From IMG/VR virus record IMGVR_UViG_3300032315_001604, positions 1-64,000 of that record: a DNA stretch of 64,000 nucleotides; one strand, written 5' to 3'. Under the pieces are notes generated by a model, which saw nothing but the letters and a program-made list of their open reading frames with translations, had not been told where the DNA came from and ran no database searches. The position numbers were made by a program, and so were the translations under genes. This document shows positions 16,452-45,809 of this stretch, piece after piece. The stretch is from a virus. Position 1 is the first letter of the stretch. Each line of letters begins with the position of its first letter.

Positions 16452-16908
16452 TGGTGGAGGTGTCGGAGTGCTGCCCTCCGAGTCTTTATAATCTACATTT
16501 ATATGTCTACATGTTTTAGTATCTTTAGCATTTCAGTCACCATACGGTAACGAAGACTTTAGGCTGCTTGGTGACACTAACCGAATTTTTAGTCTGCCTA
16601 TAGATATTAACGCAATCTATATACGGATAGTATTTTGTTTATTATGTCAGAATTACTAACAACCCGACACCCTCTGCTATCAATGAACTCTTAGAGGATC
16701 TAAGTTCAAGGTCTTTAGGCTGCTAAGAGCATTTCGTCTTCAGCACCTACGAGATACTCGTCGGCGTTGTTGAAGATATGTTCAGCTTCAGCTAAGATGG
16801 AGTCAGTATTATCTGCTCTTAATTTTTAATCGATTTTTTACGAGGCCATCGATTAACCTCGACATGCGATACAAATTTCAATTATAAATCGAAATCTAAT
16901 TCACCCCC
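16452..16908 (-). ncRNA. ssrA: tmRNA
   Basis: 5-prime GGGGGTG pairs with CACCTCC-A-CCA including G3:U70; UA at -5/-4 before GCA resume codon; tag ORF 16816-16715 ends LLAA-TAA. Confidence 0.92.
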
Positions 16909-16911
16909 AAA

Positions 16912-16923
16912 TTTTCAAAGATC
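16912..16923 (-). promoter_or_regulatory. boxA-like antitermination element
   Basis: GATCTTTGAAAA ending 3 nt before the tmRNA 5-prime end. Confidence 0.5.
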
Positions 16924-16931
16924 TAATCTAT

Positions 16932-18113
16932 TTATTCAACCTTCAAGGTTTTACCCAATGAATTGATTGTGGCTTTTTTATTCGTAACCTTAATCAATTC
17001 AACACCTGTGCTATTTTCTGAATAATTGACAATACAAAATCCGTTTTGCCAATTTGCACCTTTAACATAGGTAGGATTCAATTTACAAGCGCATCCGATT
17101 TCATGGTTCTCAACAATTTCCATTGGACGAGATCCAATCTTTGGAATGGTTTGATATGTCGATCCCAAACGATGAGTATGGCTTGTGATTGTTGAGGCAA
17201 AATGTTTTTCAAAATTACCTCTAGCAGAGAAGCCACCATGCTTACGAACAATATCACCATGATACACGAAAACGTTATTTGGTAGCTCGACTAATGAATC
17301 CATATCATCAGTAGCATCTACCAAACGAATTCGGGACCATTCTTCTTGGGGATGAAAAACTTTTGTATATGAGAGATTCTCTGCGATTTGTGGAAGCTCT
17401 AATAGTTGTTTGATATCATCACTAGCAGAAATATATCTCCACCAACGACCTTCGATACCATTACCAGAATGATTTCCATTCGTTTCAAGAATCTCTGCTT
17501 TGAATGGCTCTGTAATATCATGAAGAATTTTGAGAAATTTATGATAAGCTTCAATTTCATCATTAATACTATGGGTATGTCTAGGATCTTTAGAATACTT
17601 GCTAATAGAAAGAAGATCGACAGTATCGCCATTAAGAATAATTCTTTCTGGTTTCATTTCTTCAACAGCCTGAAGAAAGATGTTGATCGTATCCCAACAC
17701 TCAAAACCGAAGTGAGTGTCACCAATAATCATTGTTGATTTGTTGGCAACCGAATAGGTTTTAGGTTTTACTGGAGCAGGATATTGAATATATTTAACAT
17801 TTTCCAAAAACTCTTTCAATCGCTCTTGGTGAAAATCATTCTTAGTCATTCCTGCCAAATATGGAGCATCGAAAGATTCTGTTGTTTCTTCTTCGGTAAT
17901 AATGTTAATAGGGTTATCATTCTCATCGAAAGAATTTTGAACCGTAGTTTTTACAATTGTAGTATTACGGCGGCGATCTGTAACCCAATCATGAATTGTT
18001 GATCTTGGAACTCCCAAGAGTTCTGAAATTTCTGTTTTGGTTTTGCCTTTTCCATGAAGCTGTAAAACTTTTTTACGCTTTATGTTTCTATCCAAGTTAA
18101 TATTCATGCTCAT
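16932..18113 (-). CDS. HTH + calcineurin-like metallophosphoesterase
   Basis: N-terminal HTH (EISELLGVPRSTIHDW); GDTH, GDTVD, GNH, HGD, HTH motifs. Confidence 0.8.
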   Translation of the reverse strand: MSMNINLDRNIKRKKVLQLHGKGKTKTEISELLGVPRSTIHDWVTDRRRNTTIVKTTVQNSFDENDNPINIITEEETTESFDAPYLAGMTKNDFHQERLKEFLENVKYIQYPAPVKPKTYSVANKSTMIIGDTHFGFECWDTINIFLQAVEEMKPERIILNGDTVDLLSISKYSKDPRHTHSINDEIEAYHKFLKILHDITEPFKAEILETNGNHSGNGIEGRWWRYISASDDIKQLLELPQIAENLSYTKVFHPQEEWSRIRLVDATDDMDSLVELPNNVFVYHGDIVRKHGGFSARGNFEKHFASTITSHTHRLGSTYQTIPKIGSRPMEIVENHEIGCACKLNPTYVKGANWQNGFCIVNYSENSTGVELIKVTNKKATINSLGKTLKVE

Positions 18114-18195
18114 ATATTAACAGAACAGCCAATAATGTCAATAAAATATGCTTACAGTTGCGTTTATAGATTTATAAATATTAATATATAGTATT

Positions 18196-18588
18196 ATGCC
18201 AAATTTTGTTTCCAAATTCAATATATTAGAAGAAAAACATAGAGCTTTTATTAATTTGATAATCAAACCTTTAATGTCATTGATTATTTTTTTAAGTGTA
18301 GGTTATTATACCATGTGGCTTTCGACCAACTATGTACGTCAAGATAAGTTTTTTGATTTTGTTGAAAAACAAACAAAAGCGGATGAACAACAAGACGATA
18401 GTTCAAAAGCGCGTTTTGAAGTAACGCAAATAAAATTAGAAACTATTATAAATCAACAAGTTGCATATACAGAACAAATTAAAACACTAAACGCGATGTT
18501 ACTGTCTTATCAAAAACAAGTTGATGAGTTAAACGATAGAATTTTATATCTGGAAAGAAATCAAAGATTATATCATCAAGACCCTTAA
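18196..18588 (+). CDS. Single-pass membrane coiled-coil protein
   Basis: One hydrophobic helix then heptads. Confidence 0.55.
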   Translation: MPNFVSKFNILEEKHRAFINLIIKPLMSLIIFLSVGYYTMWLSTNYVRQDKFFDFVEKQTKADEQQDDSSKARFEVTQIKLETIINQQVAYTEQIKTLNAMLLSYQKQVDELNDRILYLERNQRLYHQDP

Positions 18589-20439: not shown

Positions 20440-20510
20440 GCCTGGTTAGTTTAATGGTAAAACGGTTGATTTGTAATCATCTAATACCAGTTCGATTCTG
20501 GTACTAGGCT
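20440..20510 (+). tRNA. tRNA-Thr(TGT), no encoded CCA
   Basis: Cloverleaf; loop TTTGTAA. Confidence 0.85.
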
Positions 20511-20518
20511 TATTAAAT

Positions 20519-20594
20519 TGCGGGATAGAGTTCTGGTGAACTCAAGTGTCTCATAAGCACTTTTAGGTGGGTTCGATCCCCACTCCCGCTACCA
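20519..20594 (+). tRNA. tRNA-Met(CAT), initiator-like
   Basis: Loop CTCATAA; U1:U72 mismatch, A11:U24; CCA encoded. Confidence 0.85.
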
Positions 20595-20598: not shown

Positions 20599-20829
20599 AT
20601 GTATATACCATCAAAACATTTCGAAAATCCTGAACAAGAAGTTGTTTGTCTTTTAACAGGAGAATCTTATGTTTATTTAGAAGGTGATGATATGTCTCTT
20701 CTAGATACAAAATATCATGAAGGTGCTATACAAGAATTACCAAAAAGATTTTTTTATCATCCAATGGGTATAAACAAAGGAAACGGAAATTTTAAAATTT
20801 TGATGAAAAATCCACAGTTTCTTGACTAA
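20599..20829 (+). CDS. Hypothetical protein within tRNA cluster
   Basis: 76-aa ORF. Confidence 0.5.
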   Translation: MYIPSKHFENPEQEVVCLLTGESYVYLEGDDMSLLDTKYHEGAIQELPKRFFYHPMGINKGNGNFKILMKNPQFLD

Positions 20830-20864
20830 TAAATATTTTTTGATATATTTATATATGAATTTAT

Positions 20865-20936
20865 GTCGCCATCGTCTAACGGTTAGGACACATGGTTTTC
20901 ATCCATGTAATCGGAGTTCGATTCTCCGTGGCGATG
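20865..20936 (+). tRNA. tRNA-Glu(TTC)
   Basis: CATGG-TTTTCAT-CCATG; G73. Confidence 0.9.
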
Positions 20937-20941
20937 CTTTT

Positions 20942-21015
20942 GCAGAATTAGTTTAATGGTAGAACGAAGCTCTTCCAAAGCCTAGATGAGGGTTCGATTC
21001 CCTCATTCTGCACCA
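20942..21015 (+). tRNA. tRNA-Gly(TCC)
   Basis: Loop CTTCCAA; A73 (bacterial Gly usually U73); CCA encoded. Confidence 0.85.
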
Positions 21016-21049
21016 CTTGACATATCAAAATAAAAAATAAATTAATCAT

Positions 21050-21274
21050 ATGATTAATGTAGAAGTAAAAATATTCAAAAAAGGAGATCAGAAATTAGCT
21101 TTAGATAAAGCACTCCAAAGACTAAAAACAAAATTAACCAATGAAGGTGTAATGGATACAGTAAGAGCAAAAAGAGCTTTTGAAACACCCAAGGAAAAAA
21201 GAGAAAGAAAATTAAGAAACAGACTTAAATTAATTAAAAGTAAAAAATCCTTTGACAGAAAGAAAGATCTTTGA
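21050..21274 (+). CDS. rpsU: 30S ribosomal protein bS21 homolog
   Basis: LDKALQRLK...EG...VRAKRAFETPKEKRERK matches the bS21 pattern. Confidence 0.85.
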   Translation: MINVEVKIFKKGDQKLALDKALQRLKTKLTNEGVMDTVRAKRAFETPKEKRERKLRNRLKLIKSKKSFDRKKDL

Positions 21275-21280
21275 TAAAGT
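21252..21280 (+). promoter_or_regulatory. sigma70-type promoter inside the 3-prime end of rpsU
   Basis: TTGACA-17nt-TAAAGT; start site would fall just before the hairpin at 21289. Confidence 0.6.
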
Positions 21281-21286
21281 ATTAAT

Positions 21287-21490
21287 ACGATTCGGTAGCA
21301 GTCTATATCCGAATCAGAATAAGGGATCTTGCCTGTTAGTGTGTTGGTGAACTTATTCGCTGGATGAGTTAAGCTGCATAAAACTTTGACTCCATGCATT
21401 GATTAACACAGGCTTTGACGTAGATTATTCTGCGAACTCGCGGAGGCTTCGTTAAGGAAAGGACAATTTCTAGAGTAAAACCTTTCAAAA
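21287..21490 (+). ncRNA. Candidate structured ncRNA (~200 nt), unassigned
   Basis: GATTCGG/CCGAATC hairpin; CAGAATAA/TTATTCTG and GCCTGT/ACAGGC enclosing two inner hairpins; two further hairpins. Confidence 0.6.
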
Positions 21491-21500
21491 ACTAAATTTA

Positions 21501-21585
21501 GGTAGCGTACTCAAGTGGTTTACGAGAACTGTTTACTAAACAGTCGAACAGAAATGTTCCGTGAGTTCGAATCTCACCGCTACCA
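21501..21585 (+). tRNA. tRNA-Ser(ACT), long variable arm
   Basis: ACTGT-TTACTAA-ACAGT; G1,G2,U3 acceptor, G15:C48, GAACA-GAAA-TGTTC arm. Confidence 0.8.
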
Positions 21586-21607
21586 TATACTTGCACCGAT
21601 TCATTTT

Positions 21608-22027
21608 ATGGAAAAAATAGAATACGATTTGTTTAAAAAATCAATTGTTCCTTATGGCTTAGATAGGGGTGCTCCTAAATTTGATATAATTGAAACAAAA
21701 ACTAAAAAAGATCAACACTACAATCTTGCGGTGCAACAAGCACAAAAAGAATTTGAAAATCTTAAACAAATAGCTGATGTAATCAGCAAACAAGCTCAAC
21801 AAATAAAAGAGCGTTTAGAAACTACAGAACTCATATATAACGCTGAACGTAGCTTTACCCCTGTTGTTGGAGCCAGCTACTGGCTTATAAAAGATACAAA
21901 AAAGAATAATATAAAAATTGTTGTTTTGGGACCGAATGATTGGGCTACAAACCCTCCAGAAAATTATCAATATATTTCAGAAGTTCAATTTTTAGCTAAT
22001 GGTCTTTGGGAAAAATTAACTGACTAA
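21608..22027 (+). CDS. DUF2452-like hypothetical protein
   Basis: Start moved past tRNA; PYG...APKF and FTPVVGASYWL motifs. Confidence 0.5.
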   Translation: MEKIEYDLFKKSIVPYGLDRGAPKFDIIETKTKKDQHYNLAVQQAQKEFENLKQIADVISKQAQQIKERLETTELIYNAERSFTPVVGASYWLIKDTKKNNIKIVVLGPNDWATNPPENYQYISEVQFLANGLWEKLTD

Positions 22028-22066: not shown

Positions 22067-22273
22067 ATGGAAAATTGTTATTATACAAAAATTAAATTCA
22101 TGAATAGAAATTTTGGTATTTATATTCTTACCAAAGGAGAAAATGAATTTGATTTACAAATGGAAGTCAAAGGTTCTCTTTGTGGAGATGATTTTATTTT
22201 GTTAAGAAGATATCTTATAGAAGAAGGATACGTTGAAGAAGCAAGAGAATATAATAAAAATTTAATTGGGTAG
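22067..22273 (+). CDS. Hypothetical protein
   Basis: TTGACT-16nt-TAAAAT promoter with ATG 6 nt later. Confidence 0.55.
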   Translation: MENCYYTKIKFMNRNFGIYILTKGENEFDLQMEVKGSLCGDDFILLRRYLIEEGYVEEAREYNKNLIG

Positions 22274-22358
22274 ATGGCAGAGTTGGTCTATTGCATCTGA
22301 CTTGAAATCAGAAGTGGGGGAAACTTCACCGTGGGTTCGAATCCTACTCTACCCGCCA
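22268..22358 (+). tRNA. tRNA-Ser(TGA)
   Basis: TCTGA-CTTGAAA-TCAGA; long arm; G73; CCA. Confidence 0.9.
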
Positions 22359-23896: not shown

Positions 23897-23973
23897 CGGG
23901 ATGTGGCTCAACTTGGTAGAGCATCTGCTTTGGGAGCAGAGGGTTGCAGGTTCAAATCCTGTCATCCCGACCA
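23897..23973 (+). tRNA. tRNA-Pro(TGG)
   Basis: TCTGC-TTTGGGA-GCAGA; C1:G72; CCA. Confidence 0.92.
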
Positions 23974-27802: not shown

Positions 27803-27932
27803 AAAACAAATAAAAACAGCCAAATCTATTTTAAAAGATATAGAATTAAGCTATAAGAATAAAGATGGAAGATATGGTGTTTATGCATATTCCGTCCAAC
27901 ATGAAGAATTGAAAAGGTTGGAAAATTTATGA
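27780..27932 (+). CDS. Small hypothetical protein (not in track)
   Basis: 50-aa ORF, TGA overlaps next ATG. Confidence 0.45.
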   Translation: MKNKIQIEKQIKTAKSILKDIELSYKNKDGRYGVYAYSVQHEELKRLENL

Positions 27933-28054
27933 GTGATAAATTAGAAAAAATCATGGAAGAGATTGGTAAATTGACAATTACCGAACTTAACGAACTTATT
28001 AAAAGTTTAGAACCTATCTTTACACCAAAAGAAGAAAATACATTGACTGATTAA
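27929..28054 (+). CDS. Ribosomal protein bL12 N-terminal-domain-only mini-protein, 41 aa (not in track)
   Basis: MSDKLEKIMEEIGKLTITELNELIKSLEPIF matches the L7/L12 dimerisation helices (I..I.KLT..EL.EL.K.LE..F); no hinge or CTD. Confidence 0.65.
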   Translation: MSDKLEKIMEEIGKLTITELNELIKSLEPIFTPKEENTLTD

Positions 28055-28070
28055 ATATATCTGGTAAATT
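28043..28070 (+). promoter_or_regulatory. sigma70-type promoter for ncRNA/tRNA-Asn
   Basis: TTGACT-16nt-TAAATT with TG extension. Confidence 0.55.
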
Positions 28071-28077
28071 AGATATA

Positions 28078-28089
28078 GTTCTTTGAAAA
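28078..28089 (+). promoter_or_regulatory. boxA-like element
   Basis: GTTCTTTGAAAA right after the predicted start site. Confidence 0.6.
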
Positions 28090-28101
28090 ATTTAAAAAAG
28101 T

Positions 28102-28673
28102 TTAGTGCTGGATAGTCGGACCAGCACTAAAAATCCTGATGCGAAACCCATCAGGTCAGAGATAGGTTTAACCAATTAACAACTCTGCAATAAATGGATT
28201 GGTTTATAAAAAGGTATGCAACTCTACCTCTCTATATAACGGATACGTGTCCGTGTTCTGATCAGACATATAGAGTCCCATAGTGGATAGCTTGGAAGCG
28301 AAAAAAAAGAGTGTAGGTTCTGGGTAAACCAAAGCTATATAGGCTAAAACTCTTGTCCCGAAAGGGGTAAAGGTTCTGTGTTCTTCTGTTGTTGGCTTAT
28401 TGCCAACCAGAAGCCAGCAGTTTAAGGCGCAACTTAAACATCAGTCTGGTCCTGTTTGCGACAAAAACACCAATTTTAAGCCGAGAATCCTAACGAGATT
28501 CTAGTCAGAACCCACTGATGAGATGAAGCTGGTCGTTCCAGTAATAAGGGGGATGGTTGCCATGACCCGCATACGGTGTGCGTAAGTTGACTCGTCTGAA
28601 AAGATAGGGAGTCCGTGCTTGATTCCAGAAGGAAAAATCCGAAAGGAAAATGATGGTATGTAAAGACAGCCGA
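28102..28673 (+). ncRNA. Large structured ncRNA candidate (GOLLD/ROOL size class)
   Basis: No credible ORF; at least 10 hairpins incl. a perfect 10-bp stem and GNRA loops; ends a few nt before tRNA-Asn. Confidence 0.75.
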
Positions 28674-28679
28674 ATTTTT

Positions 28680-28751
28680 TGATGCGTAGCTCAATGGTAG
28701 AGCACTTGGCTGTTAACCAGGCTGTTGTAGGTTCGAGTCCTACCGCATCAG
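28680..28751 (+). tRNA. tRNA-Asn(GTT)
   Basis: CTTGG-CTGTTAA-CCAGG; U1:A72; G73. Confidence 0.9.
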
Positions 28752-28762
28752 TAATTATTATT

Positions 28763-28882
28763 GTGAAAAAACTATTATATACTATTATATTTGTTAGTAT
28801 TTGTTTACTTGTTTCTGGATGTTATAGCACAAAATCTATGGGCGATTCAGAAAAAGCAGATAAATATCTTTTCGTGTATTAA
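28763..28882 (+). CDS. Small lipoprotein
   Basis: GTG start; signal peptide ending LVSG-C. Confidence 0.55.
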   Translation: MKKLLYTIIFVSICLLVSGCYSTKSMGDSEKADKYLFVY

Positions 28883-28961: not shown

Positions 28962-29111
28962 ATGAAAAAATATTGCACGTTTCCAGATGAAACCAAAATC
29001 GAACTTCATTCAATTTTGGATGTAACTGATACTCATACTTGTATCTGTTACAATGATGAAAATATTTCCCAAATACTTTGGGTTCCTAACGATTTTATTG
29101 TTAATGATTAA
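28962..29111 (+). CDS. Small hypothetical protein (not in track)
   Basis: 49-aa ORF overlapping next start. Confidence 0.4.
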   Translation: MKKYCTFPDETKIELHSILDVTDTHTCICYNDENISQILWVPNDFIVND

Positions 29112-31857: not shown

Positions 31858-31861
31858 TTTT

Positions 31862-32057: not shown

Positions 32058-32104
32058 TTTATATGTAGTTGTATATCCTCTGTATTTTTATAAGTAAATA
32101 TAAT

Positions 32105-33565
32105 ATGTCCGAATTGGAAGACAGCATTATAGATTTATATAGAGAAGCATTAAATTCTAAAAATAATAACAAAGAAGATTTGATTAAAGAAGTATCAAAT
32201 TCTGTCGAATTGTTAAAAAACGATATTGTTGTCGAACAAAAAGATTCCAACGATCCTCTGGAAAAATTTCTTTTTAAACTTACAGGTATTTTAAAAGAAA
32301 ATAAAAAAAGTGAAGAACCTTCATTGATTGAAGAAATAACAGAAACATTTGAAATTCAAGAGGATACAACTGTTAAAAAAATAAAAGAAGAAAAAACCAA
32401 AAATGTTTCTGAAGATATTGAAGAAAAAAACGATCCATTAGAAAATTTTCTTTTCAAACTCAATGATATTTTAGTCACAAAGAAAAACGAAACAGTTAAA
32501 AACTCTGCTTTAAATTTAATTGAGCAATTAAAAAACAAAGAAGACGAACCTAAAAAAATAGAAATAGAACAAAAACCAAAAGAAGTTCCTTTACCTCCTC
32601 AACCAGAATTGGGACAAGTTCCGAATGTTACACCACCGCTTGATGTTCTTAAAAAAAGAGCTAAACCCTTACCTAAAAAGAAAAACGATTATGTAAAAGA
32701 ATTAGAAAGTGCAGACAAAGATTTACCAAAAATACCAAAAGAATCGGAACAGCAAAAAACAATAAAAGAAGAAGTTCAAAAACACATTAAAGAATTTTTA
32801 GGCAAATACAGAAATGGTGTAGTTGCTGAAGGTGGTGGTGGTGATGGAAATTTTTCTACCGAATTTAAAAACGGTGGAACAATGAATGGAGATTTAAATG
32901 TTTTAGGTCAATATCTCTCAGGTGGCGTTGATCTTGCAACTATTTTTAGTGGAGGTGGTGGGGGTTCCAGTGACAGATTAATAGCAGGATTACAACAATT
33001 AATTTTAAATTCAGATGGAACTTTAACATTTCCTGATGACACAATTCGCACATCTGATGGAAAACTTTTATCAATTGAAGCGGAAACTTTAGCACTATCA
33101 GCATTTACAAAAATAGCATTATCTGGAAATGCATTTTATGCATATGATTCAAATGGAAATGCAATAACATTTGATACTATAGATAACGAAATTGTTTTAA
33201 CAACACAAGGAACAAACAGTTGGACGTTTGGTGATGATGGAAAACTTTCAGGACCAAATAATATTTTAGAGATTAATGGAAATTTAAATACATCCAACAA
33301 AATACTTTCTGGTGGTGTAGATCTTGCAAATATATTTTTAACCCAAGTTGTTTCATCAACGTTTTTACCAAATGTTAGACAATTTGATTATGTACAAATT
33401 AATGAGAATAGTTATTCTTATTGTGGGAGCGCACCATACGGATCTTTAACTTCTGATAGTACATGGACTATTAAGCGTTTATTGTTTACAAGCGTGGGAA
33501 CATTTCTTTCTGGTGGTACAGTTTACAATTCTGTTTGGAATAATAGATATTCTTATAGTTACTAA
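32105..33565 (+). CDS. Structural protein: charged N-half fused to fibre-like C-half
   Basis: Repeated DPLExFLFKL; GGGG hinges; repeated LSGGVDLAxIF; C-terminal GSAPYGS...WTIKR...WNNR. Confidence 0.6.
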   Translation: MSELEDSIIDLYREALNSKNNNKEDLIKEVSNSVELLKNDIVVEQKDSNDPLEKFLFKLTGILKENKKSEEPSLIEEITETFEIQEDTTVKKIKEEKTKNVSEDIEEKNDPLENFLFKLNDILVTKKNETVKNSALNLIEQLKNKEDEPKKIEIEQKPKEVPLPPQPELGQVPNVTPPLDVLKKRAKPLPKKKNDYVKELESADKDLPKIPKESEQQKTIKEEVQKHIKEFLGKYRNGVVAEGGGGDGNFSTEFKNGGTMNGDLNVLGQYLSGGVDLATIFSGGGGGSSDRLIAGLQQLILNSDGTLTFPDDTIRTSDGKLLSIEAETLALSAFTKIALSGNAFYAYDSNGNAITFDTIDNEIVLTTQGTNSWTFGDDGKLSGPNNILEINGNLNTSNKILSGGVDLANIFLTQVVSSTFLPNVRQFDYVQINENSYSYCGSAPYGSLTSDSTWTIKRLLFTSVGTFLSGGTVYNSVWNNRYSYSY

Positions 33566-33567
33566 AT

Positions 33568-35442
33568 ATGGCAATTATCAATGCAGCAAACAATGGAAAT
33601 TGGTCAAATAGTAATACTTGGCCAAGCGGAATATTTCCTACCGTTTTAGACGATGTATATGCAAACAATCGAACAATTTACATTGATCAAAATATATCAG
33701 TATATAGTCTCAATACTACAGCGGGTACTGGAGGAACGGCTGGTGGTAGGTTTTATGCAAATCAAGGTGATAGAATTATAAATGCAAATATAATTCAAGC
33801 AGGGACTACATATTGTGTCACAGTAACAGGAACAGGTACTAGAACAATTTCCTCACAATTCATAGAAGGATCTGACACTACAAATACTACTGCTGCTATT
33901 TTAATACAAGGGACATCTACAGCATTACCAAATGTTGTTACTTATGGGAGCGCAGTTGGTGGTTTGGCATCAGGCGGTGGTGCTACTAGTACACCATCAG
34001 CAATAACAATTGAAGGTGGTATTTTAACTCATTATGGGTTTGTTTCTGGTGGAGGTGGACAAGCAACTACAAGAAGTACTGGTATTAAAATATACCAAGC
34101 AGCAAGCAGTACAATACCAGTTTCGGCTATTATATATGGAAATGTTAAAGGTGGTACAAATCCAATATGTACTGGTATAACCTGTGAGTTTTCTCCTGCT
34201 GCTACGACACTTTCAAGTTGTTTGATTTCGATATATGGAAACCTTTCAGGTGGAGATAGTTTATTAACCGCAACAACAAATAATGCAGGTTTATATACCA
34301 ACACAACAATCCATACAGAAGTTTCAGGAAACATACACGGAGGATCTGGTTTTTCTTATACAAATGGTGGTATTGTTGGATTTGCTACAACAACCCTTGA
34401 TGTTAATATTGTTGGAAATGTTTATAATCATAATAGTTTTGGTTTTTGTCCAGGAATATCTTATTCAAGCACTTCGGGTAATATTAATATAACTGGAGAT
34501 GTTGTTTGTCTTGATTCATTTGGTGGCGTTCCTGCTACAAATAGTATTAATAGCTATGCAATTTATCAAAATGGTGGTACAGCTTTAAATATTCTTGGTA
34601 ATGTTTATGGTTGTCGAGGTCTTGTAGGTTTTGCTAATGGTGGAATTTATTTAGATTCAACTAATGTTACAAGTATAACAGGGAATGTTTATGGAGGAAA
34701 TACTGGTAACTCTTATGGGATTTATGTTGCGGACAGTCCGAATATAGTTAACATATATGGTAATGTTTATGGGAATACTGTAGGTAGAGGGGTTGGTGGT
34801 CATGGCATATATATTAATTCGGGAACAGCAAGAGTAAACATTTATGGATCTGCTATAGGTTCAGAAAATGACAATACATCTTGGGGAGTAAGAAATAACA
34901 GTACTGGTGTAGTATATGCCAAAAGAGTTGTAGCTAATTCATTTGGCGTGGGATCGGGAGGAGTGTCCGACAACCCAAATTATGGTGTTGGGAGTGATAG
35001 CATTAGTGGTAGAAATCTTGTTGAAGAGTTGGTTTTTGGACCAAGAGGACAAATACCTGTTTTTGGTCCTACTTATATTGTTAAAGAAACTACCAATAGT
35101 GCAACAATACAAACGTTTGATGTTACAAAATCAAACTTTTATCAAGAAAAAAAATTAGTAGATGATACAATAATCAATACATTTTTACCAAAAGTTTCGG
35201 ATGTAAGGTCAAATGTTGTTTATGATTCTTTAACAGGAACTATGATTGTTCCTGCTCCATCTTCGGTTAATTTTGAAATACCTGTAGACAATACACAAGG
35301 TACAGCATACCTAACACCAAACATTTTATGGAATACCCAAACAACAGAATTAACGAGTCTTTCGACAGTTATTGGTTACAGAATGAATAATATTGCAACA
35401 GTTGAAACGGTTGGAAATACGTTAGCATCTTATAATATATAA
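33568..35442 (+). CDS. Gly/Asn/Ser/Thr-rich beta-helix fibre-like protein A
   Basis: Repeated IxGNVYGG; N- and C-termini shared with protein B. Confidence 0.75.
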   Translation: MAIINAANNGNWSNSNTWPSGIFPTVLDDVYANNRTIYIDQNISVYSLNTTAGTGGTAGGRFYANQGDRIINANIIQAGTTYCVTVTGTGTRTISSQFIEGSDTTNTTAAILIQGTSTALPNVVTYGSAVGGLASGGGATSTPSAITIEGGILTHYGFVSGGGGQATTRSTGIKIYQAASSTIPVSAIIYGNVKGGTNPICTGITCEFSPAATTLSSCLISIYGNLSGGDSLLTATTNNAGLYTNTTIHTEVSGNIHGGSGFSYTNGGIVGFATTTLDVNIVGNVYNHNSFGFCPGISYSSTSGNINITGDVVCLDSFGGVPATNSINSYAIYQNGGTALNILGNVYGCRGLVGFANGGIYLDSTNVTSITGNVYGGNTGNSYGIYVADSPNIVNIYGNVYGNTVGRGVGGHGIYINSGTARVNIYGSAIGSENDNTSWGVRNNSTGVVYAKRVVANSFGVGSGGVSDNPNYGVGSDSISGRNLVEELVFGPRGQIPVFGPTYIVKETTNSATIQTFDVTKSNFYQEKKLVDDTIINTFLPKVSDVRSNVVYDSLTGTMIVPAPSSVNFEIPVDNTQGTAYLTPNILWNTQTTELTSLSTVIGYRMNNIATVETVGNTLASYNI

Positions 35443-35443
35443 T

Positions 35444-37303
35444 ATGGCAATTATCAATGCAGCAAACAATGGAAATTGGTCAAATAGTAATACTTGGCCA
35501 AGCGGAATATTTCCTACTTCTAATGATGATGTTTATGCTAATACCAGAACTGTTTATATTGATCAAAATATAAATGTCAATAGTCTCAATACTACAGCAG
35601 GTACTGGCGGAACGGCTGGTGGTTTATTTTATAATACAGGCTCAATTTCTATAACAGCAGGTACAATTATGCCAGGAACAACAAACGTATTAACGTTAAC
35701 TGGAAATAATAATATTAATATTCAAAGTAGTTTAATTTCTGGTTCTTACACAACCACCAACACATGGGGTATAATTATGATAGGAGCTTCTCCCGCACCA
35801 ACCGTAACAATTAACAGCTATATTTCAGGGGGTAGTTTTGCGGGTACAACTGGAGGTATTAGACAAGAAGCGGGAAATTTAAACGTATCGGGAACTATAG
35901 TTGGAGGATCCGCAAACTCTACATGTCCCGCTATATACATTATCAATGTAGGAAACTATCCAGTTGTTTTTAATGGTGTTGGTAGTGTTGTAGGAAGTAG
36001 ACGTATACAGCTTGGAGCGGGGATCAACATCACATACGTAGGACAAGAATTTTCAAATAAAAACAGTTCTTTTACATTTACTGGTATTGTGTCTGGTTCT
36101 CCTCTAATTTCAGATCAAAACAACCAAACATCGGCTGCTATGCGTATTAATACAACAATACCTGTGTTTATAAATGGGGATGTTATAGGCGGTTCTGGTG
36201 GATTTTCTACATTCGGTGGTACTATTCAAAATTCAGGTCAAGCTGCTGTTTATATTGAAGGTAATTCGGTTGTAACTTTGAGTGGTAATGTTTATTCGGG
36301 AGTTGCTAATTTATCAGGAAGTTCTTTTGAATCTATTTATGTTCGAGGTCCATCACCCACTCTCAACATTATTGGAAATATTGTCAACGTAGAAACTTTA
36401 GGTACTGGAAATGGTTGTTTGGATTTTGGTAGTACAACGGGTTTTTTTAATCTTACTGGTAATATTATTTCAAGTTCTGGTACAAGAAATGTAGCAAGAG
36501 TTGTTGGAGTTGGTAATACAAATACTTTTACTATGTACGGAAATATTAGTGCAAATCGAAGTATAGGATTGACTATGGCAAATAATAGCACAGTAAATAT
36601 ATATGGTGATGTTTATGCGGGTAATACATCAGGTAGTGGTGGCACTGGATCAGCGGGTATAGTTATATCATCAGGTGCAAGAGGAAAACTTAATGTATAT
36701 GGTACGGTAAATTCAGGAAATGCCAACTTTTCACATGGAATTGGTTATGGTAGTAGTGTAGTAACCTCAATTTATGCTAAAAAATTAAAAGGTGGTGTAT
36801 ATGGTATTGGATCTGGTACAGGTACACCTTTGACATATGCAATTGGAGCGACACAAAACGTTGTTTCGTTGCCAACGATGAATATTGTATGCGAAGAATT
36901 AGAATTTGGAAGATATGGAGCACCACCAGTTTTATTAAATGTTTGTTTTGCTGATAAATCTTTTAATACTATTACTATGCCAGTTACAAGTACAACCGCA
37001 GAAATAAAAACATTAGTCGATCCCAATTTTAATAATATCATGCCATCGGTTTCTGATGTTCGTTTAGAAACAATTTATAGTGCAGGTAACTTAATAGGAA
37101 CTTGCAATATACCACCAATTGAAAATGTTGAATTTAAAGTACCAGTTGACAATAGCTATGGAATAGCCGCACTAACACCCCAATCGATTTGGAACACAAC
37201 TACTACACAATTAACTTCTTTATCGACAAGTATTGGTTATAGACTTAATAATGCTGCAACAGTTGAATCGGTGGGTCAGCAGGTAGCAGCATTTGGTGCA
37301 TAA
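35444..37303 (+). CDS. Gly/Asn/Ser/Thr-rich beta-helix fibre-like protein B
   Basis: First 74 coding nt identical to protein A; shared C-terminal PxVSDVR...PVDN...IGYR. Confidence 0.75.
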   Translation: MAIINAANNGNWSNSNTWPSGIFPTSNDDVYANTRTVYIDQNINVNSLNTTAGTGGTAGGLFYNTGSISITAGTIMPGTTNVLTLTGNNNINIQSSLISGSYTTTNTWGIIMIGASPAPTVTINSYISGGSFAGTTGGIRQEAGNLNVSGTIVGGSANSTCPAIYIINVGNYPVVFNGVGSVVGSRRIQLGAGINITYVGQEFSNKNSSFTFTGIVSGSPLISDQNNQTSAAMRINTTIPVFINGDVIGGSGGFSTFGGTIQNSGQAAVYIEGNSVVTLSGNVYSGVANLSGSSFESIYVRGPSPTLNIIGNIVNVETLGTGNGCLDFGSTTGFFNLTGNIISSSGTRNVARVVGVGNTNTFTMYGNISANRSIGLTMANNSTVNIYGDVYAGNTSGSGGTGSAGIVISSGARGKLNVYGTVNSGNANFSHGIGYGSSVVTSIYAKKLKGGVYGIGSGTGTPLTYAIGATQNVVSLPTMNIVCEELEFGRYGAPPVLLNVCFADKSFNTITMPVTSTTAEIKTLVDPNFNNIMPSVSDVRLETIYSAGNLIGTCNIPPIENVEFKVPVDNSYGIAALTPQSIWNTTTTQLTSLSTSIGYRLNNAATVESVGQQVAAFGA

Positions 37304-37543: not shown

Positions 37544-37618
37544 GCACAGTTAGCTCAGTGGTAGAGCGGTACGTTTACACCGTATTGGTCGGGGGTTCGA
37601 ATCCCTCACTGTGTACCA
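37544..37618 (+). tRNA. tRNA-Val(TAC)
   Basis: GTACG-TTTACAC-CGTAT; CCA. Confidence 0.92.
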
Positions 37619-37620
37619 TA

Positions 37621-37691
37621 GGGGGATTAGTTAAGTGGTATAACTCCTGATTTGCATTCAGGTGTCACCAGTTCGACTCTGGTATCCTCCA
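37621..37691 (+). tRNA. tRNA-Ala(TGC)
   Basis: CCTGA-TTTGCAT-TCAGG; G3:U70; A73. Confidence 0.9.
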
Positions 37692-38047: not shown

Positions 38048-38350
38048 ATGATTAAAACTGTACAGAAAAAAGAAGAATATTTTATTGAATTCACAGATGA
38101 AGAAATGGATCAATTGGGATTTAAACCCAACACAAGATTCACAATAGAATTGAGTGAAGATAAAAGCAGTTTGAAATTAACTCCCCACGAAGAAATGGAA
38201 ATCGATTTGGATGAGTTTTCCAAAGAAGATTTAATTAATATTATTGTTGCTGCAAATAAAGCAGATATGACTTTTGAAGATTTTGTTGTTGACTCTTTGA
38301 CTAAATTCTGCGAAGCTCATAAGGACGAAGATGAAGGGTCTATTTTATAA
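38048..38350 (+). CDS. Hypothetical protein, AbrB-like N-terminus
   Basis: FIEFTDEEMDQLGFKPNT pattern. Confidence 0.4.
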   Translation: MIKTVQKKEEYFIEFTDEEMDQLGFKPNTRFTIELSEDKSSLKLTPHEEMEIDLDEFSKEDLINIIVAANKADMTFEDFVVDSLTKFCEAHKDEDEGSIL

Positions 38351-39014
38351 TAATGTTCGCCAAGAGGCAAGAAACCACGAAATTCTTTTTTGGGGTTGCT
38401 TGCATTGGCATCATAATCCAAAGTGGGATATTCCCATTTGGAAGCGTAGAGGGTTTGATTCTGTTGAAGAGCACGACGAAGCTATTGTTTTAAATTGGAA
38501 TAGTAAAGCATCGGATAAAACTATTGGTTTTCTTCTGGGCGACATCATGTTTGGTTATGGTGGAATGGAAGAATTCATGAAGCTTATGCGCCGTTTGAAG
38601 TTTCAACGCCTCTTTGTTATGTCTGGAAATCATACAGCAGGGTGGAAACAAGCATTTGAAAGTGTAAAAGACAATACAGTATATGTTGATGGATATCGCA
38701 GAGAAGTAATATTTGTTCCAAACTATTTGGAAGCATATATTAATGGTCAGCCTATTGTCATGTGCCACTATCCAATTTTGTCTTGGAACGGAGCAGGAAA
38801 AGGTTCGTGGATGCTTTTTAGTCATGTTCATGGTTCACTTGGAAATAGTGAATTAGGACGTATGTATTTGAAAGATGGAGGTTATAACTTGGAAGTTTCC
38901 GTTGAAGCAACAAAATTTCCTTTGACTTATGGAGAAATTGGTGCTATTATGAGAAATAAATCTAAATTTAAAACAGATCATCACGACGAAAATGCATCAA
39001 CACCATTTAGCTAA
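38331..39014 (+). CDS. Calcineurin-like phosphoesterase
   Basis: GCLH (Cys for Asp), LGD, GNH, CHYP, HVHG. Confidence 0.75.
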   Translation: MKGLFYNNVRQEARNHEILFWGCLHWHHNPKWDIPIWKRRGFDSVEEHDEAIVLNWNSKASDKTIGFLLGDIMFGYGGMEEFMKLMRRLKFQRLFVMSGNHTAGWKQAFESVKDNTVYVDGYRREVIFVPNYLEAYINGQPIVMCHYPILSWNGAGKGSWMLFSHVHGSLGNSELGRMYLKDGGYNLEVSVEATKFPLTYGEIGAIMRNKSKFKTDHHDENASTPFS

Positions 39015-41369: not shown

Positions 41370-41546
41370 ATGAAAAATATAGATTATTTCCTTTTTATTA
41401 TCATTCCTATAGCCATATTGTTGACTATTGACATTCAACAAACATTTAAAAATCGAGAACTTCAAACTCAAATCGATGAATTAAAAATTATTGTTGACCA
41501 AAAATTTCTTCCTGCTATAATTCTCGAACAACCCAATATTCGATAA
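41370..41546 (+). CDS. Small membrane protein (not in track)
   Basis: TTTACT-16nt-TATAAT promoter, ATG 6 nt later. Confidence 0.5.
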   Translation: MKNIDYFLFIIIPIAILLTIDIQQTFKNRELQTQIDELKIIVDQKFLPAIILEQPNIR

Positions 41547-42331
41547 TGCATACCATTATAATTCCTGATGTCCACCAAAGAGTAAATTCTGTAAAATGGG
41601 TTTTAGAAAACGAGAAAGAATATGATGAAGTAGTCTTTCTTGGCGATTGGTTTGATTCTTTTTACGATCCACCAAAAGTTGCAGGATTTGAAGAAACTTG
41701 TGAGTATCTAAAACATCTTGTTTTAGAACATCCCAACAAGGATAAATTTGTTTTTTTAATTGGCAATCATGATATTAGTTATATCTATGAAAATAAAAAC
41801 TTTTCACCTAACCCAGTTTCAAAAACTTTAAAATATTATTGTTCTGGTTTTACAATTTCTAAAGCCAGAAAATTTCGTCGTGTGTTTTTTGATCATGGTT
41901 TAAAAGATGATTTCTTTTTTAAACATTTTAAATTTGCACATCAAACACAAGGATGGACTTTATCTCATGCAGGAATTTCGGTTAAATTTTTTCCTTACGA
42001 TTATAGTATAGAAAGATTTGTAAATGAACTTCTTCCCGATGTTTGGAAAAACTTTAGAAATCTTGAGTATAATCATAATGAAATCATTTCTGCTGCTGGT
42101 TATTATCGCGGTGGACATCATCCAGTAGGTGGCGTTATATGGTATGATTGGAGAGCAGAATTTAGTTCTACTATTGAAACTGGAAAACAAATTGTTGGTC
42201 ATACGACAGTAAAAGAACCAGATTGTATTCACATGAATACACCTTTGGAGTGTTGGAACTTAGATACCGAAAAAGATTACGGTATTATAATTGATGGTCG
42301 TTTGATTACCAAAAAAATAAATATTACATGA
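41546..42331 (+). CDS. Calcineurin-like metallophosphoesterase
   Basis: PDVH, LGDWFD, GNHD, SHAG, VGHT. Confidence 0.85.
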   Translation: MHTIIIPDVHQRVNSVKWVLENEKEYDEVVFLGDWFDSFYDPPKVAGFEETCEYLKHLVLEHPNKDKFVFLIGNHDISYIYENKNFSPNPVSKTLKYYCSGFTISKARKFRRVFFDHGLKDDFFFKHFKFAHQTQGWTLSHAGISVKFFPYDYSIERFVNELLPDVWKNFRNLEYNHNEIISAAGYYRGGHHPVGGVIWYDWRAEFSSTIETGKQIVGHTTVKEPDCIHMNTPLECWNLDTEKDYGIIIDGRLITKKINIT

Positions 42332-42540
42332 CTGTTAAAGAATTAATAAATCGATTACAACAAATCGATAACCAAGAAATGATAGTTGTTGTTAATGGCT
42401 ATGAAGACGGATTTGATGACATCAAAGATCCAAAGGTCGTTGCTACTTATGAGCAAGTAGATCGTAATTGGTATAACGGAAAATACGAACAAATTTCTTC
42501 TGGACAAGGTGGCAATCTTATGCTACTATTGCCTAGATAA
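42328..42540 (+). CDS. Hypothetical protein
   Basis: MTVKELINRLQ...GYEDG. Confidence 0.55.
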   Translation: MTVKELINRLQQIDNQEMIVVVNGYEDGFDDIKDPKVVATYEQVDRNWYNGKYEQISSGQGGNLMLLLPR

Positions 42541-42953
42541 TGAAAAAGAAAGTTTTATATATTATAACTGGTCCTTCTGGAGCGGGTAAAACTACTCGCG
42601 CTAAAGAATTAATGCGCGAAAAAGGCATTAAGCACCATTACGAAGCAGATATGCTTATGATTGATCGTAATGGAGATTACGCATTTAATCCTAGAAAATT
42701 AAAAGAGTGTCATGGTTGGTGTCAGAAAGCAACCGAAAGAGCTATGCTTCTCGGTGAAGCTGTTATTATTTCCAATACAATGACAATGAAATGGGAAGCA
42801 GAACCTTATATTGAAATGGCAAGACATCACGGCTATCATATCATAATTGAACATTTAAAAACTGAATACAAAAATGTTCATGAGGTTCCTCAAGAAATTG
42901 TGGAAAAAATGAAAGCTAGAAGAGAATTTTTTAAATTGGAGGATTTTGAATAA
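42540..42953 (+). CDS. P-loop kinase (polynucleotide-kinase-like, AAA_33)
   Basis: GPSGAGKTT, EAD, ISNT, HEVP. Confidence 0.8.
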   Translation: MKKKVLYIITGPSGAGKTTRAKELMREKGIKHHYEADMLMIDRNGDYAFNPRKLKECHGWCQKATERAMLLGEAVIISNTMTMKWEAEPYIEMARHHGYHIIIEHLKTEYKNVHEVPQEIVEKMKARREFFKLEDFE

Positions 42954-43605: not shown

Positions 43606-44117
43606 TGAAAATAAAATTAAATTCAGAACAACTTGAATATGCTAAAAATTTAGCATCAAAAAGACATGAATCAAAAAACATTTCTTTTAGAAATGCACAT
43701 AGATTACATAAAAATTTAAAAAAATCTAAATTAGATCATTATATTTTACACATTACTCATAAAGCACATTTTTTAGGAGTTTTAGGAGAAATGGCTTATG
43801 CAAAAATTGTTAACGATAAAATTGATGAAAACATTTATGAGGTTAGAGATACAGGAGCAGATGTTGGAGATGTAGAAGTAAAAACATCGACATGGAAAGG
43901 TAATGATATAGAATTAAAAGTTCAGAAAAACCATTTTGAAACAAAATTTCCAAAAAAATATGTTTTGGTAAGAATAGATGAAAATAATTTTGATGAAATT
44001 GAAGTTATTGGGGAAATAACAAGAGAAGATTTTGATAAAAAGAAAAAAATAAAACAATACGCTCCAAATTATCCTATCAATTATATTGTTGGTATGAACA
44101 GTTTAAATTTATTGTAA
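43596..44117 (+). CDS. PD-(D/E)xK nuclease-like protein
   Basis: GVLGEMA...GAD...VEVKT. Confidence 0.5.
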   Translation: MDIMKIKLNSEQLEYAKNLASKRHESKNISFRNAHRLHKNLKKSKLDHYILHITHKAHFLGVLGEMAYAKIVNDKIDENIYEVRDTGADVGDVEVKTSTWKGNDIELKVQKNHFETKFPKKYVLVRIDENNFDEIEVIGEITREDFDKKKKIKQYAPNYPINYIVGMNSLNLL

Positions 44118-44118
44118 T

Positions 44119-44511
44119 ATGGCTGAATATAAAAATTTTATAATGACAAAAGAATTTTTGGATAATAATCCAAAAGCTATTTTTGTATTTGGAGATAATA
44201 CAATTCGTCAAGGTTATGGTGGAGCAGCAATACTAAGAGATCATCCACAATCTTATGGTTTTATTACAAAAAAATATCCTGATAACAAAGACGAATCTTT
44301 TTATCAGCCTAAAGAGTATGCAATTGTTTTTTTTGATGAACTTGTAAAATTGAGAGAAAAAATTCAAGACGATCCATTTAAAATGTTTTACATATCTCAA
44401 TTAGGTGGTGGTTTAGCAAACAAATATAACATTTGGGAAAAGGTTATTAAAAGTGGTTTGGAAAAAAATTTGCAAGAGTTTCCAAATGTGGTATTCTTGT
44501 GGGGGAAATAA
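44119..44511 (+). CDS. Macro-domain-like protein
   Basis: IFVFGDN...GYGGAA...LGGGLA. Confidence 0.45.
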   Translation: MAEYKNFIMTKEFLDNNPKAIFVFGDNTIRQGYGGAAILRDHPQSYGFITKKYPDNKDESFYQPKEYAIVFFDELVKLREKIQDDPFKMFYISQLGGGLANKYNIWEKVIKSGLEKNLQEFPNVVFLWGK

Positions 44512-44512
44512 A

Positions 44513-44737
44513 ATGATTTACGGATTTAATATAACCGAAGAATATGCTTTAAGTTTTGGTCTTTTTTATAAAGTTCGAAATTTTAAAGATGGCATTACAT
44601 TTTTTGAATTTTTGCTTAATTTAAATCTTTATAAAGCAGATCACAATCCACAGATTCGATTAAATTTGGTTATATTTAATTTTACTATTTTTGACATTAC
44701 GTTATATAACGTAAGGCACTATGACTCTTATCTGTGA
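44513..44737 (+). CDS. Hypothetical protein
   Basis: ORF packing. Confidence 0.45.
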   Translation: MIYGFNITEEYALSFGLFYKVRNFKDGITFFEFLLNLNLYKADHNPQIRLNLVIFNFTIFDITLYNVRHYDSYL

Positions 44738-45809
44738 TAAACCATCTGTTGATGATGGGTTTGGTATATACGAACATGACTTTTGTGGTATACCTGCTTA
44801 TTTGATTATTCCTGCTATTGATGCAAAATGGAATAAAAATAATTTAAACTACAGATCCTTAATTATAAGCAAAGAGAATTCCGAAGTTCTTTCTAGTGGC
44901 TGGCCTAAATTTTTTAATTGTGGCGAAAAACCAGATTGCTATCCAGATCCAAACAAATATGATGATTGGAACATACAAGAAAAACTTGATGGTTCTTTAT
45001 TGATTGCAGATTATGTTAATGGAAAATTTAATATGCGAACTCGCGGAACAGCTTCGTATATAACCCAAAACAATTTTTCTGATTTTGAGCTTTTAAAGGA
45101 TTATCATTCAGACATTGTTTCTTTTTTAGAAGAAAATAGTCATCTGTCTTTGCTTTTAGAAATTATTACTCCAAATAATATTATTGTTATTAGAACGCCA
45201 ATGGTTCAATTTTATTTGCTTGGTGCAATCGATAAAACGACTTTAAACCCTTTGCCTTTAAAAAAAGTTGAAGAAATTTCTCAAGAATTAAAAATTCCTA
45301 CTCCTGAAGTATTTTCTTTTGAAAATTTAGAAGAAACTATTAAAACAGTCAAAGAGTGGAAAGGAAAAGAGGGTATTGTTATTTCATATAACGACAATCA
45401 AAATCGAATTAAAATTAAATCAGATTGGTATTGTTGGATTCATAAAATTAAATCTAAATTAAATTCCGAATCAAACTTAATTGAATTTTATGTAAACGAA
45501 GGTCTTCCATCATATAAAAAATTTTATGATATTATAAAAAACAATTTTGATTGGGAACTTGCCGAACAAATGACAAATGAAATTTCTAAAATGGTAGATT
45601 GTGGAAAAAAAGTCAAAAAAATTATTAAAGGAATGGATAGGTTTATTGATACAATTAAACACTATCCTACAAGAAAAAAACAAGCTCAACAAATAATGTC
45701 TTCGTATGGCAGCAATCAAAATAATACGTCAGGAATGCTTTTTAATTTATTAGATGGTAAAAATTTAACCAAAGAACAACTGATCAAACTAATGCATCAA
45801 AATTTATGA
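44721..45809 (+). CDS. T4 Rnl1-like RNA ligase
   Basis: KFFN, EKLDGSL, TRG, LEII, EGIVI, RIKIKS. Confidence 0.85.
   Translation: MTLICDKPSVDDGFGIYEHDFCGIPAYLIIPAIDAKWNKNNLNYRSLIISKENSEVLSSGWPKFFNCGEKPDCYPDPNKYDDWNIQEKLDGSLLIADYVNGKFNMRTRGTASYITQNNFSDFELLKDYHSDIVSFLEENSHLSLLLEIITPNNIIVIRTPMVQFYLLGAIDKTTLNPLPLKKVEEISQELKIPTPEVFSFENLEETIKTVKEWKGKEGIVISYNDNQNRIKIKSDWYCWIHKIKSKLNSESNLIEFYVNEGLPSYKKFYDIIKNNFDWELAEQMTNEISKMVDCGKKVKKIIKGMDRFIDTIKHYPTRKKQAQQIMSSYGSNQNNTSGMLFNLLDGKNLTKEQLIKLMHQNL

Follow-up and report, generated by a model that had tools for sequence, protein, structure and literature searches.

The locus and its parts

The stretch of DNA considered here, referred to below as the window, comprises positions 1 to 64,000 of IMG/VR virus record IMGVR_UViG_3300032315_001604, which is linear, 195,163 bp long and ~92% complete. 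The record encodes genes of a T4-type phage (large terminase, family-B DNA polymerase and portal), and its source is an uncultured freshwater T4-like phage with a genome of ~31% GC; the cultured phages closest to it, Sinorhizobium phiM9 and Caulobacter Cr30, have terminases only 31-36% identical to its own. Our subject is a 29-kb arm, window positions 16452-45809, which holds a transfer-messenger RNA (tmRNA), 13 transfer RNAs (tRNAs), a gene for ribosomal protein bS21, a gene for a miniprotein related to the N-terminal domain (NTD) of ribosomal protein bL12, two structured RNAs of no Rfam family (RNA A and RNA B), and genes for a kinase, an RNA ligase and phosphoesterases (Table 1). An earlier note on this DNA had read these parts as one integrated system for translation takeover and RNA repair. 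The parts themselves were confirmed. Because related phages hold them in different combinations, however, we consider the arm not to be one integrated, co-evolved machine but a mosaic of small, separately inherited units with a common theme, a reading to which we assign a probability of about 0.7.

Table 1. Features of the arm, in window coordinates, with the matches and motifs that identify them (bit scores are followed by the family cut-off; ORF, open reading frame; HTH, helix-turn-helix).
Feature	Position	Strand	Evidence and remarks
tmRNA	16452-16908	(-)	RF00023, 93 bits (cut-off 47); one-piece; 33-codon tag frame; T-loop GGCAGCA
boxA-like motif	16912-16923	(-)	exact TCTTTGAAAA, 3 nt upstream of the tmRNA 5' end
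HTH and metallophosphoesterase gene	16932-18113	(-)	HTH_23 (Pfam), weak Metallophos; phrog_221 at 1e-23; directly upstream of the tmRNA
tRNA-Thr(UGU), initiator-like tRNA-Met(CAU)	20440-20594	(+)	
tRNA-Glu(UUC), tRNA-Gly(UCC), bS21 unit	20865-21274	(+)	promoter-like site 20822-20849
bS21	21050-21274	(+)	PF01165, 40.8 bits (cut-off 27)
RNA A	21283-21500	(+)	non-coding, ~215 nt; no ORF; no Rfam family
tRNA-Ser(ACU)	21501-21585	(+)	A34; kept in G002 and G004
tRNA-Ser(UGA)	22268-22358	(+)	
tRNA-Pro(UGG)	23897-23973	(+)	
bL12-NTD miniprotein	27929-28054	(+)	41 residues; PF16320; PDB 1zav_U, 1dd3_C
RNA B	28078-28675	(+)	boxA-like motif 28078-28090, leader hairpins, D1 ~28200-28476, D2 28477-28675; promoter-like site 28043-28070
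tRNA-Asn(GUU)	28679-28752	(+)	always directly after RNA B
tRNA-Gln, tRNA-Tyr, boxA-like spacer (31946-31958), long-arm tRNA-Ile(UAU)	31787-32057	(+)	
tRNA-Val(UAC), tRNA-Ala(UGC)	37544-37691	(+)	
Second phosphoesterase	38331-39014	(+)	phrog_547 at 6e-34; weak Metallophos
Metallophosphoesterase	41546-42331	(+)	PF00149 at 3e-9; DxH/GD/GNHD intact; weak match to the phosphoesterase part of phrog_8238
P-loop kinase, polynucleotide-kinase type	42540-42953	(+)	AAA_33 at 2e-13; phrog_2071, phrog_505; P-loop GPSGAGKT
Rnl1-type RNA ligase	44721-45809	(+)	PF09511, 48.5 bits (cut-off 28.3); phrog_562 at 1e-37; KLDG at residue 88

Distribution of the parts among related phages

The terminase identified 107 relatives, among which six near-complete genomes and 13 fragments were compared with the window's own genome, G000 (Table 2). 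At least five presence patterns are found for the nine parts in the seven genomes, and at least four once the universal tmRNA and tRNAs are set aside. G004 and G006 pair as sisters on the terminase tree (100/100 support), yet four parts differ between them, and G001, which forms the other group together with G000 and G002, nevertheless lacks nearly all of the optional parts. Since the two sisters differ and G001 is without most parts, the optional parts follow neither the terminase tree nor one another. In G004, moreover, the parts stand in a changed order and orientation. Distant homologues of the 41546 phosphoesterase (32-36% identity) were found in G001, G003 and G005 and in the fragments G013 and G015; those of G003, G005 and G013 lie no more than ~2.5 kb from the tmRNA.

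Table 2. Presence of nine parts in the near-complete genomes; absences from G003 (73% complete) and G005 (82% complete) are weaker evidence than the others.
Part	Present in	Not in	Genomes
tmRNA	G000-G006		7/7
tRNAs (10-22 per genome)	G000-G006		7/7
bS21	G000, G002, G004, G006	G001, G003, G005	4/7
bL12-NTD gene	G000, G002, G004	G001, G003, G005, G006	3/7
RNA B	G000, G002, G004	G001, G003, G005, G006	3/7
Kinase	G000, G002, G004	G001, G003, G005, G006	3/7
Ligase	G000, G002, G004 (also fragment G007)	G001, G003, G005, G006	3/7
RNA A	G000, G004, G006	G001, G002, G003, G005	3/7
41546 phosphoesterase, close homologue	G000, G002, G006	G001, G003, G004, G005	3/7

Several small units recur. A boxA-like motif precedes the tmRNA in 10/10 clade tmRNAs. 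The order tRNA-Glu, tRNA-Gly, bS21 is the same in G000, G002 and G004, the bS21 of G006 standing in a different, tRNA-free context, and RNA A is followed by tRNA-Ser(ACU) in both G000 and G004. The miniprotein gene, an interval of 0-1.25 kb, the boxA-like motif, RNA B and tRNA-Asn succeed one another in all six distinct contigs that have RNA B, and the kinase goes with the ligase, the two genes being adjacent in G004.

The tmRNA and its long tag

The RF00023 match that bears out the tmRNA spans model positions 1-374, that is, the whole Rfam model; ARAGORN missed the gene. The alanine identity pair G3:U70 is present, and the 5' GGGGGUG pairs with CACCUCC, which is followed by ACCA with the CCA end. 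The canonical T-loop (GTTCRANYC), replaced in G000, is found in the tmRNAs of G002 and G004. We note that the tmRNAs of G000 and G013, which belong to different branches, have a paired change, the D-loop going from TGG to TAG and the T-loop from GTTCGAC to GGGCAGC/T.

The tag frame starts at the canonical resume codon GCA after pseudoknot 1, stays open for 33 codons and stops after LLAA. Frames of 33-35 codons occur in 10/10 clade tmRNAs and make up two sequence families. Differences among relatives at the first, second and third codon positions number 0, 1 and 15, 1, 2 and 10, and 4, 1 and 15, and because of this strong third-position bias the whole tag frame is, as judged from the sequences, translated and under coding selection. 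The 9-residue tag that ARAGORN gives for G002 and G004 was rejected, since the bias extends upstream of that short tag. No match to SmpB (PF01668) was found in the 195-kb record, so that host SmpB would have to serve the phage tmRNA.

The gene directly upstream of the tmRNA in G000, on the same strand, encodes a metallophosphoesterase with an N-terminal HTH. A prophage or integrase reading of this ORF was set aside, as it is an HTH and metallophosphoesterase gene in a virus record. Four clade genomes (G000, G003, G005 and G013) have a metallophosphoesterase gene within ~2.5 kb of the tmRNA.

bS21 and the bL12-NTD miniprotein

The bS21 of the arm was confirmed by its PF01165 match, and PF01165 is likewise matched by all of its 56 close metagenomic homologues. 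A tblastn search of GenBank phages gave no match at E up to 1e-5, and a search of bacterial genomes, made for host inference, gave no relative; between the arm and GenBank phages no DNA is shared beyond tRNA-sized matches. Incorporation into the 30S subunit has been shown for the bS21 of phage HTVC008M expressed in Escherichia coli (PMC6375957).

The bL12-NTD reading frame is also present. Its PF16320 score is 24.2 bits in G000 and 26.3 bits in G002 and G004 against a cut-off of 25, with positions 1-25 of the 48 of the profile covered. Thermotoga maritima L12 NTD is its best PDB match (E 0.004), residues 5-31 of the miniprotein aligning to residues 3-29 of the 30-residue L12 NTD fragment crystallised on L10 (1ZAV). 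The predicted structure, a two-helix hairpin with helices at residues 3-13 and 17-31, superposes as a model on that fragment at 0.8 A. In metagenomes there are 32 clusters with members of 29-60 residues, and the family as a whole spans 29-79 residues; its 31-residue core does not vary, whereas the acidic tail does, and the G000 and G002 copies differ by seven synonymous and three non-synonymous codons. Considering that the bL12 C-terminal domain (PF00542) has no match anywhere in the 195-kb genome, that the reading frame ends at 41 residues and that no long form was found in the protein collection searched, we regard the product as a bL12-derived miniprotein and not as bL12.

RNA A and RNA B

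Both orphan structured RNAs of the earlier note proved to be without an ORF and without an Rfam family, and to be conserved with compensatory changes. For RNA A, a search of positions 21200-21620 at E up to 10 returned tRNA only. It is 74-75% identical in G004 and G006, and compensatory changes were found at 8 of 36 predicted pairs across four sequences; the z-score of its single-sequence fold, -0.47, is not unusual.

RNA B has a fold z-score of -2.8 relative to shuffled sequence. Its G000 and G004 copies share long invariant blocks, while the terminases of the two phages are just 67% identical; whole hairpins have been gained or lost, compensatory changes are seen in peripheral stems, and in G004 an additional ~125 nt separate D1 from D2. 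A covariance model of D2, run against 19 relatives, matched in G002 and G004 only. D1 also occurs by itself, in a metagenome contig (L182:1400-1830); a promoter of TTGACA type and the boxA-like motif known from RNA B stand before it there, and tRNA-Met(CAU) and a T-run come after it. In being large (~600 nt), GC-richer, highly structured and non-coding, and in abutting a tRNA in a phage tRNA region, RNA B resembles GOLLD and ROOL; the search of positions 27900-28800 at E up to 10 returned tRNA only, with GOLLD and ROOL included, so that it differs from them in sequence and architecture. Readings of RNA A or RNA B as GOLLD, ROOL or Y-RNA were thus rejected for want of an Rfam match. An RNase P-like reading of RNA B, suggested by words resembling CR-I and CR-V, was rejected as well: the order of the words is reversed, they lie in local hairpins, and Rfam gave no match.

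The boxA-like motif, promoter-like sites and a leaderless-start signal

The boxA sites of the earlier note can be retained as a boxA-like motif. The sequence TCTTTGAAAA has four exact copies in the 195 kb, three of which lie directly 5' of tmRNA, RNA B and tRNA-Ile(UAU), in sense orientation. Each of the ten clade tmRNAs is preceded, at 3-13 nt, by the form G[TA]TCTTTGA[AT]AA, and the motif is likewise retained in front of all copies of RNA B and of two long-arm tRNA-Ile(UAU) genes that are quite unlike each other. Compared with the boxA consensus of ribosomal RNA (rRNA) operons, GYTCTTTAANA (Baniulyte et al., 2017, PMC5725501), the sites at 28078 and 31946 match 10 of 11 positions, and the one preceding the tmRNA carries A at position 2. 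As in rRNA operons, the phage motif occupies a transcribed leader or spacer of long RNAs that are not translated and, for RNA B, stands downstream of a promoter-like site; what differs is that the putative site here precedes, in a phage, a tmRNA, an unclassified RNA and a tRNA instead of rRNA, and that position 8 is G. The two clearly different tRNA-Ile(UAU) sequences, both with a long variable arm, follow tRNA-Tyr behind one conserved spacer, TTTCTTTGAAA(A/T)TTTTA; the G006 copy of the G000-type gene is without the spacer motif. A G at position 8 of boxA is the form seen in Bacillus rrn operons.

Sigma-70-type promoter-like sites precede the tRNA-Glu/bS21 unit, RNA A and RNA B. For the near-leaderless mRNAs that had been claimed, the promoter signal was confirmed: start codons stand most often 6 nt after the -10 hexamer, in 12 genes versus 1-4 at other distances, and the genes with this spacing from sigma-70-type promoters include those at 22067, 24016, 37732, 41370 and 46085. 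Over the whole genome no Shine-Dalgarno enrichment was found, cores being present at 16/243 starts versus 19/243 control sites inside genes. Regions upstream of genes are A/U-rich throughout the G000 genome. Sites of the T4-type late promoter TATAAATA were too few to assign expression classes. Despite the lack of Shine-Dalgarno sequences we did not adopt a Bacteroidota host, because the Bacteroidetes-type promoter motif TAnnTTTG is not enriched upstream of genes (11 upstream versus 17 inside genes, compared with 13 versus 3 for TTGACA-type sites).

The tRNAs and codon usage

Sixteen tRNAs are found in the genome, 13 in the arm, as had been claimed, and three more at 190-194 kb. The three that had been singled out as atypical are so indeed: tRNA-Ser(ACU), tRNA-Ile(UAU) with a class-II long variable arm, and tRNA-Met(CAU). 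The last had been taken for tRNA-fMet, which holds in part. It has the U1xU72 mismatch, G2:C71, C3:G70 and A11:U24, but the three G:C pairs of an initiator anticodon stem are missing, pairs 29-31:39-41 being U-A, G-C and U-G. By these features it is initiator-like for formylation and not a canonical tRNA-fMet.

The anticodons fit the commonest codons of the phage, as illustrated by AGT, used 19.4 times per 1000 versus 5.8 for AGC, and by ATA, used 23.6 times per 1000. Other commonest codons for which the phage has matching anticodons are TTA, AGA, AAA, GAA, CAA, ACA, GCA, CCA and GGA.

RNA repair enzymes

The RNA ligase, kinase and phosphoesterase of the earlier note were all recovered, by the PF09511 match with the KLDG motif, by the P-loop and by the DxH/GD/GNHD motifs, respectively. 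An Rnl1-family ligase with KxDG and a P-loop polynucleotide-kinase-like domain are also what T4 has in Rnl1 and Pnkp. In T4 Pnkp, however, the kinase is fused to a HAD-type phosphatase, whereas the kinase domain here stands alone at 137 residues and the DxDxT (HAD) 3'-phosphatase motif is absent from it and from the neighbouring ORFs. In bacterial Pnkp a kinase, a metallophosphoesterase and a ligase form one chain; here each is encoded by a gene of its own, four unrelated ORFs separate the kinase gene from the ligase gene, and the 41546 phosphoesterase, its motifs intact, is not co-inherited with the other two. The phrog_8238 profile joins phosphoesterase-like and ligase-like parts. A DUF7831/phrog_2072 gene lies between the kinase and ligase genes, at 44119-44511.

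Other genes of the arm and the window

About 45 of the ~56 ORFs of the arm have no known family in Pfam or PHROG. Unrelated genes stand amid the parts, among them fibre-like, methyltransferase, PurA-like and PQ-loop genes and three ORFs of 500-620 residues. Large ORFs without a Pfam match, at 32069-37303 and 9883-15342, lie between tRNA clusters and have elsewhere been labelled fibre-like paralogues and leucine-rich repeat (LRR) genes; given such ORFs between tRNA clusters, the arm is not a dedicated translation module.

A purine gene set comprises a NUDIX hydrolase, an IMPDH/GMP-reductase-like protein (313 residues) and a short adenylosuccinate synthetase (337 residues), at window positions 3608-4003, 6948-7889 and 29618-30631; it may shift G nucleotides toward A for the 31% GC genome. 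A methyltransferase gene, 29053-29625, overlaps the start of the synthetase gene. A PurZ reading of the synthetase (Z-genome, 2-aminoadenine) was rejected, since it scores 134-191 bits against PurA structures versus 76 and 38 against PurZ structures. In the first 4 kb (window 1-4000) the GC content is 40-47%, versus ~31% elsewhere, and the NUDIX gene is the sole ORF there with a Pfam match.

Proposed roles and rival explanations

From the presence, conservation and linkage of the parts we infer each of the functional steps that follow. The core of the lineage, present in every relative, is a tRNA set that would supply the A/U-ending codons of the phage, together with a long-tag tmRNA that, depending on host SmpB and alanyl-tRNA synthetase (AlaRS), would rescue stalled ribosomes and write a tag of 33-35 residues. 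The phage bS21 might replace host bS21 on the 30S subunit and so bias initiation toward phage mRNAs, which are without Shine-Dalgarno sequences and partly leaderless. The kinase and the Rnl1-type ligase, joined in some genomes by the metallophosphoesterase, might heal and seal tRNAs cut by host anticodon nucleases in the manner of T4, and the boxA-like motif, found at the head of the longest untranslated transcripts, probably keeps Rho from ending them early by recruiting NusB and NusE of the host. The miniprotein matches the bL12 fragment that dimerises and binds helix alpha-8 of uL10, and it may occupy or cap stalk sites there; as it corresponds to the dimerisation and uL10-binding part without the factor-recruiting C-terminal domain, it is most economically read as a competitor for those sites. 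That the NTD-only miniprotein truly is a phage-made competitor which strips or caps the factor-recruiting arms of the host ribosome, and that it may act with RNA B, bS21 and the long-tag tmRNA so that a class of ribosomes specific to the phage arises, is a proposal at rather long odds.

The single co-regulated system of the earlier note, in which bS21 and the initiator-like tRNA would act in initiation, the bL12 mimic and the tRNAs in elongation, the tmRNA in rescue and the ligase set in repair, with the orphan RNAs as further components, appears improbable to us. The idea is supported in part: the theme of translation and RNA is common to the parts, some of which are tightly and repeatedly linked, all of them lie in one arm and, except for the tmRNA, on one strand, sigma-70-type promoter-like sites and a common boxA-like motif each precede three of the units or stable RNAs named above, and the phage mRNAs lack Shine-Dalgarno sequences, some being apparently leaderless. 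Other findings count against integration. The presence patterns differ among the relatives in disregard of the terminase tree: the closest relative, G002, has no RNA A, G004 has no 41546 phosphoesterase, and G006 keeps its bS21 apart from any tRNA. The parts are, furthermore, a minority of the genes of the arm, most of which are unrelated ORFans, and the record contains no SmpB gene. Independent, patchy distribution is what the earlier note had named as counting against its proposal, and it is largely what the co-occurrence analysis over relatives gave. The exception is the first of several points that weigh against the mosaic we prefer: the bL12-NTD gene, RNA B, kinase and ligase occur in exactly the same near-complete genomes, on both main branches of the tree, a co-occurrence beyond what full independence predicts but one that involves just two or three independent lineages. 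All parts fall within one ~45-kb arc, even in the rearranged G004; absences from the two least complete genomes could be missing sequence; and homologues of RNA A were sought by blastn, which divergent ones could escape.

Two narrower explanations concern subsets of the parts. The arm might be an anti-defence toolkit, in which the tRNAs replace host tRNAs destroyed by nucleases, the kinase, phosphoesterase and Rnl1-type ligase repair cut tRNAs, and the tmRNA clears ribosomes stalled by cleaved mRNA or by loss of tRNA. We think of this as somewhat unlikely, yet clearly the strongest of the competing accounts. T4 Pnkp and Rnl1 reverse the cleavage of tRNA-Lys by PrrC, and here a ligase of the T4 RnlA family (phrog_562) and a polynucleotide-kinase-type kinase always occur together, with a metallophosphoesterase whose motifs are intact. 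The account overlaps the mosaic reading as to the tRNAs, the repair set and the tmRNA, and it gives bS21 and the bL12-NTD protein no role; the tRNA set tracks phage codon usage so closely that codon supply alone explains it, and the tmRNA and tRNAs are retained in relatives that have neither ligase nor kinase. The joint absence of the miniprotein gene and RNA B from G001, G003, G005 and G006, together with the invariable position of the former 0-1.25 kb upstream of RNA B and of tRNA-Asn directly after it, could instead point to one ribonucleoprotein, in which the RNA, for example, presents a uL10-like or stalk-like surface or sequesters host bL12. This we regard as very unlikely. The linkage can be explained by a gene order conserved among relatives, the miniprotein gene and RNA B are in most genomes kept apart by inserts of 0.6-1.25 kb, no similarity of RNA B to rRNA or to the L10 leader was found, and the contig with D1 alone has no miniprotein gene in the 3 kb available.

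Relation to known systems and significance

Interception of translation by large phages has been proposed before (PMC7162821, PMC6375957, PMC9723584). The repertoires of huge phages (Al-Shayeb et al., 2020, PMC7162821, Fig. 3) are similar in that tRNAs, tmRNA, bS21, an L7/L12-related protein and tRNA-ligation genes occur in one phage, with the same interception proposed, and according to that paper no phage has the full set. The genome here differs from theirs in being T4-like and smaller than 200 kb, in that no genes for SmpB, aminoacyl-tRNA synthetases or initiation or elongation factors were detected, and in that its bL12 relative is NTD-only. With the bS21-encoding freshwater phages (Chen et al., 2022, PMC9723584) and Pelagibacter phage HTVC008M (Mizuno et al., 2019, PMC6375957) it shares a bS21 of ~70 residues, an AT-rich aquatic genome and many tRNAs; in the former, however, the gene lies on the reverse strand in the structural (late) block of 293-331-kb genomes, whereas here tRNA-Glu and tRNA-Gly precede it within the tRNA arm. 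Published phage bL12 proteins (PMC6375957) are bL12-derived as well, but they have the C-terminal factor-binding domain, often within larger proteins, so that the present family, NTD-only with an acidic tail, is their reverse. In view of the published overall model and the known phage bS21 and bL12, the arm belongs to a known kind of accessory arm. The parts that look new are the NTD-only bL12 family, the tmRNA tags of 33-35 codons under coding selection and the two-domain RNA B.

The arm is thus one more case of large phages with genes for translation and RNA repair, and comparison with its relatives shows how such an arm is assembled from small movable units. The conserved 41-residue family that retains only the bL12 NTD would lend itself naturally to dominant-negative probing of the ribosomal stalk. 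Tags of 33-35 codons under clear coding selection raise the question of what role a long, phage-written degradation tag may have, and the boxA-headed, two-domain RNA B, always found between the miniprotein gene and tRNA-Asn, is a candidate for a new RNA family.

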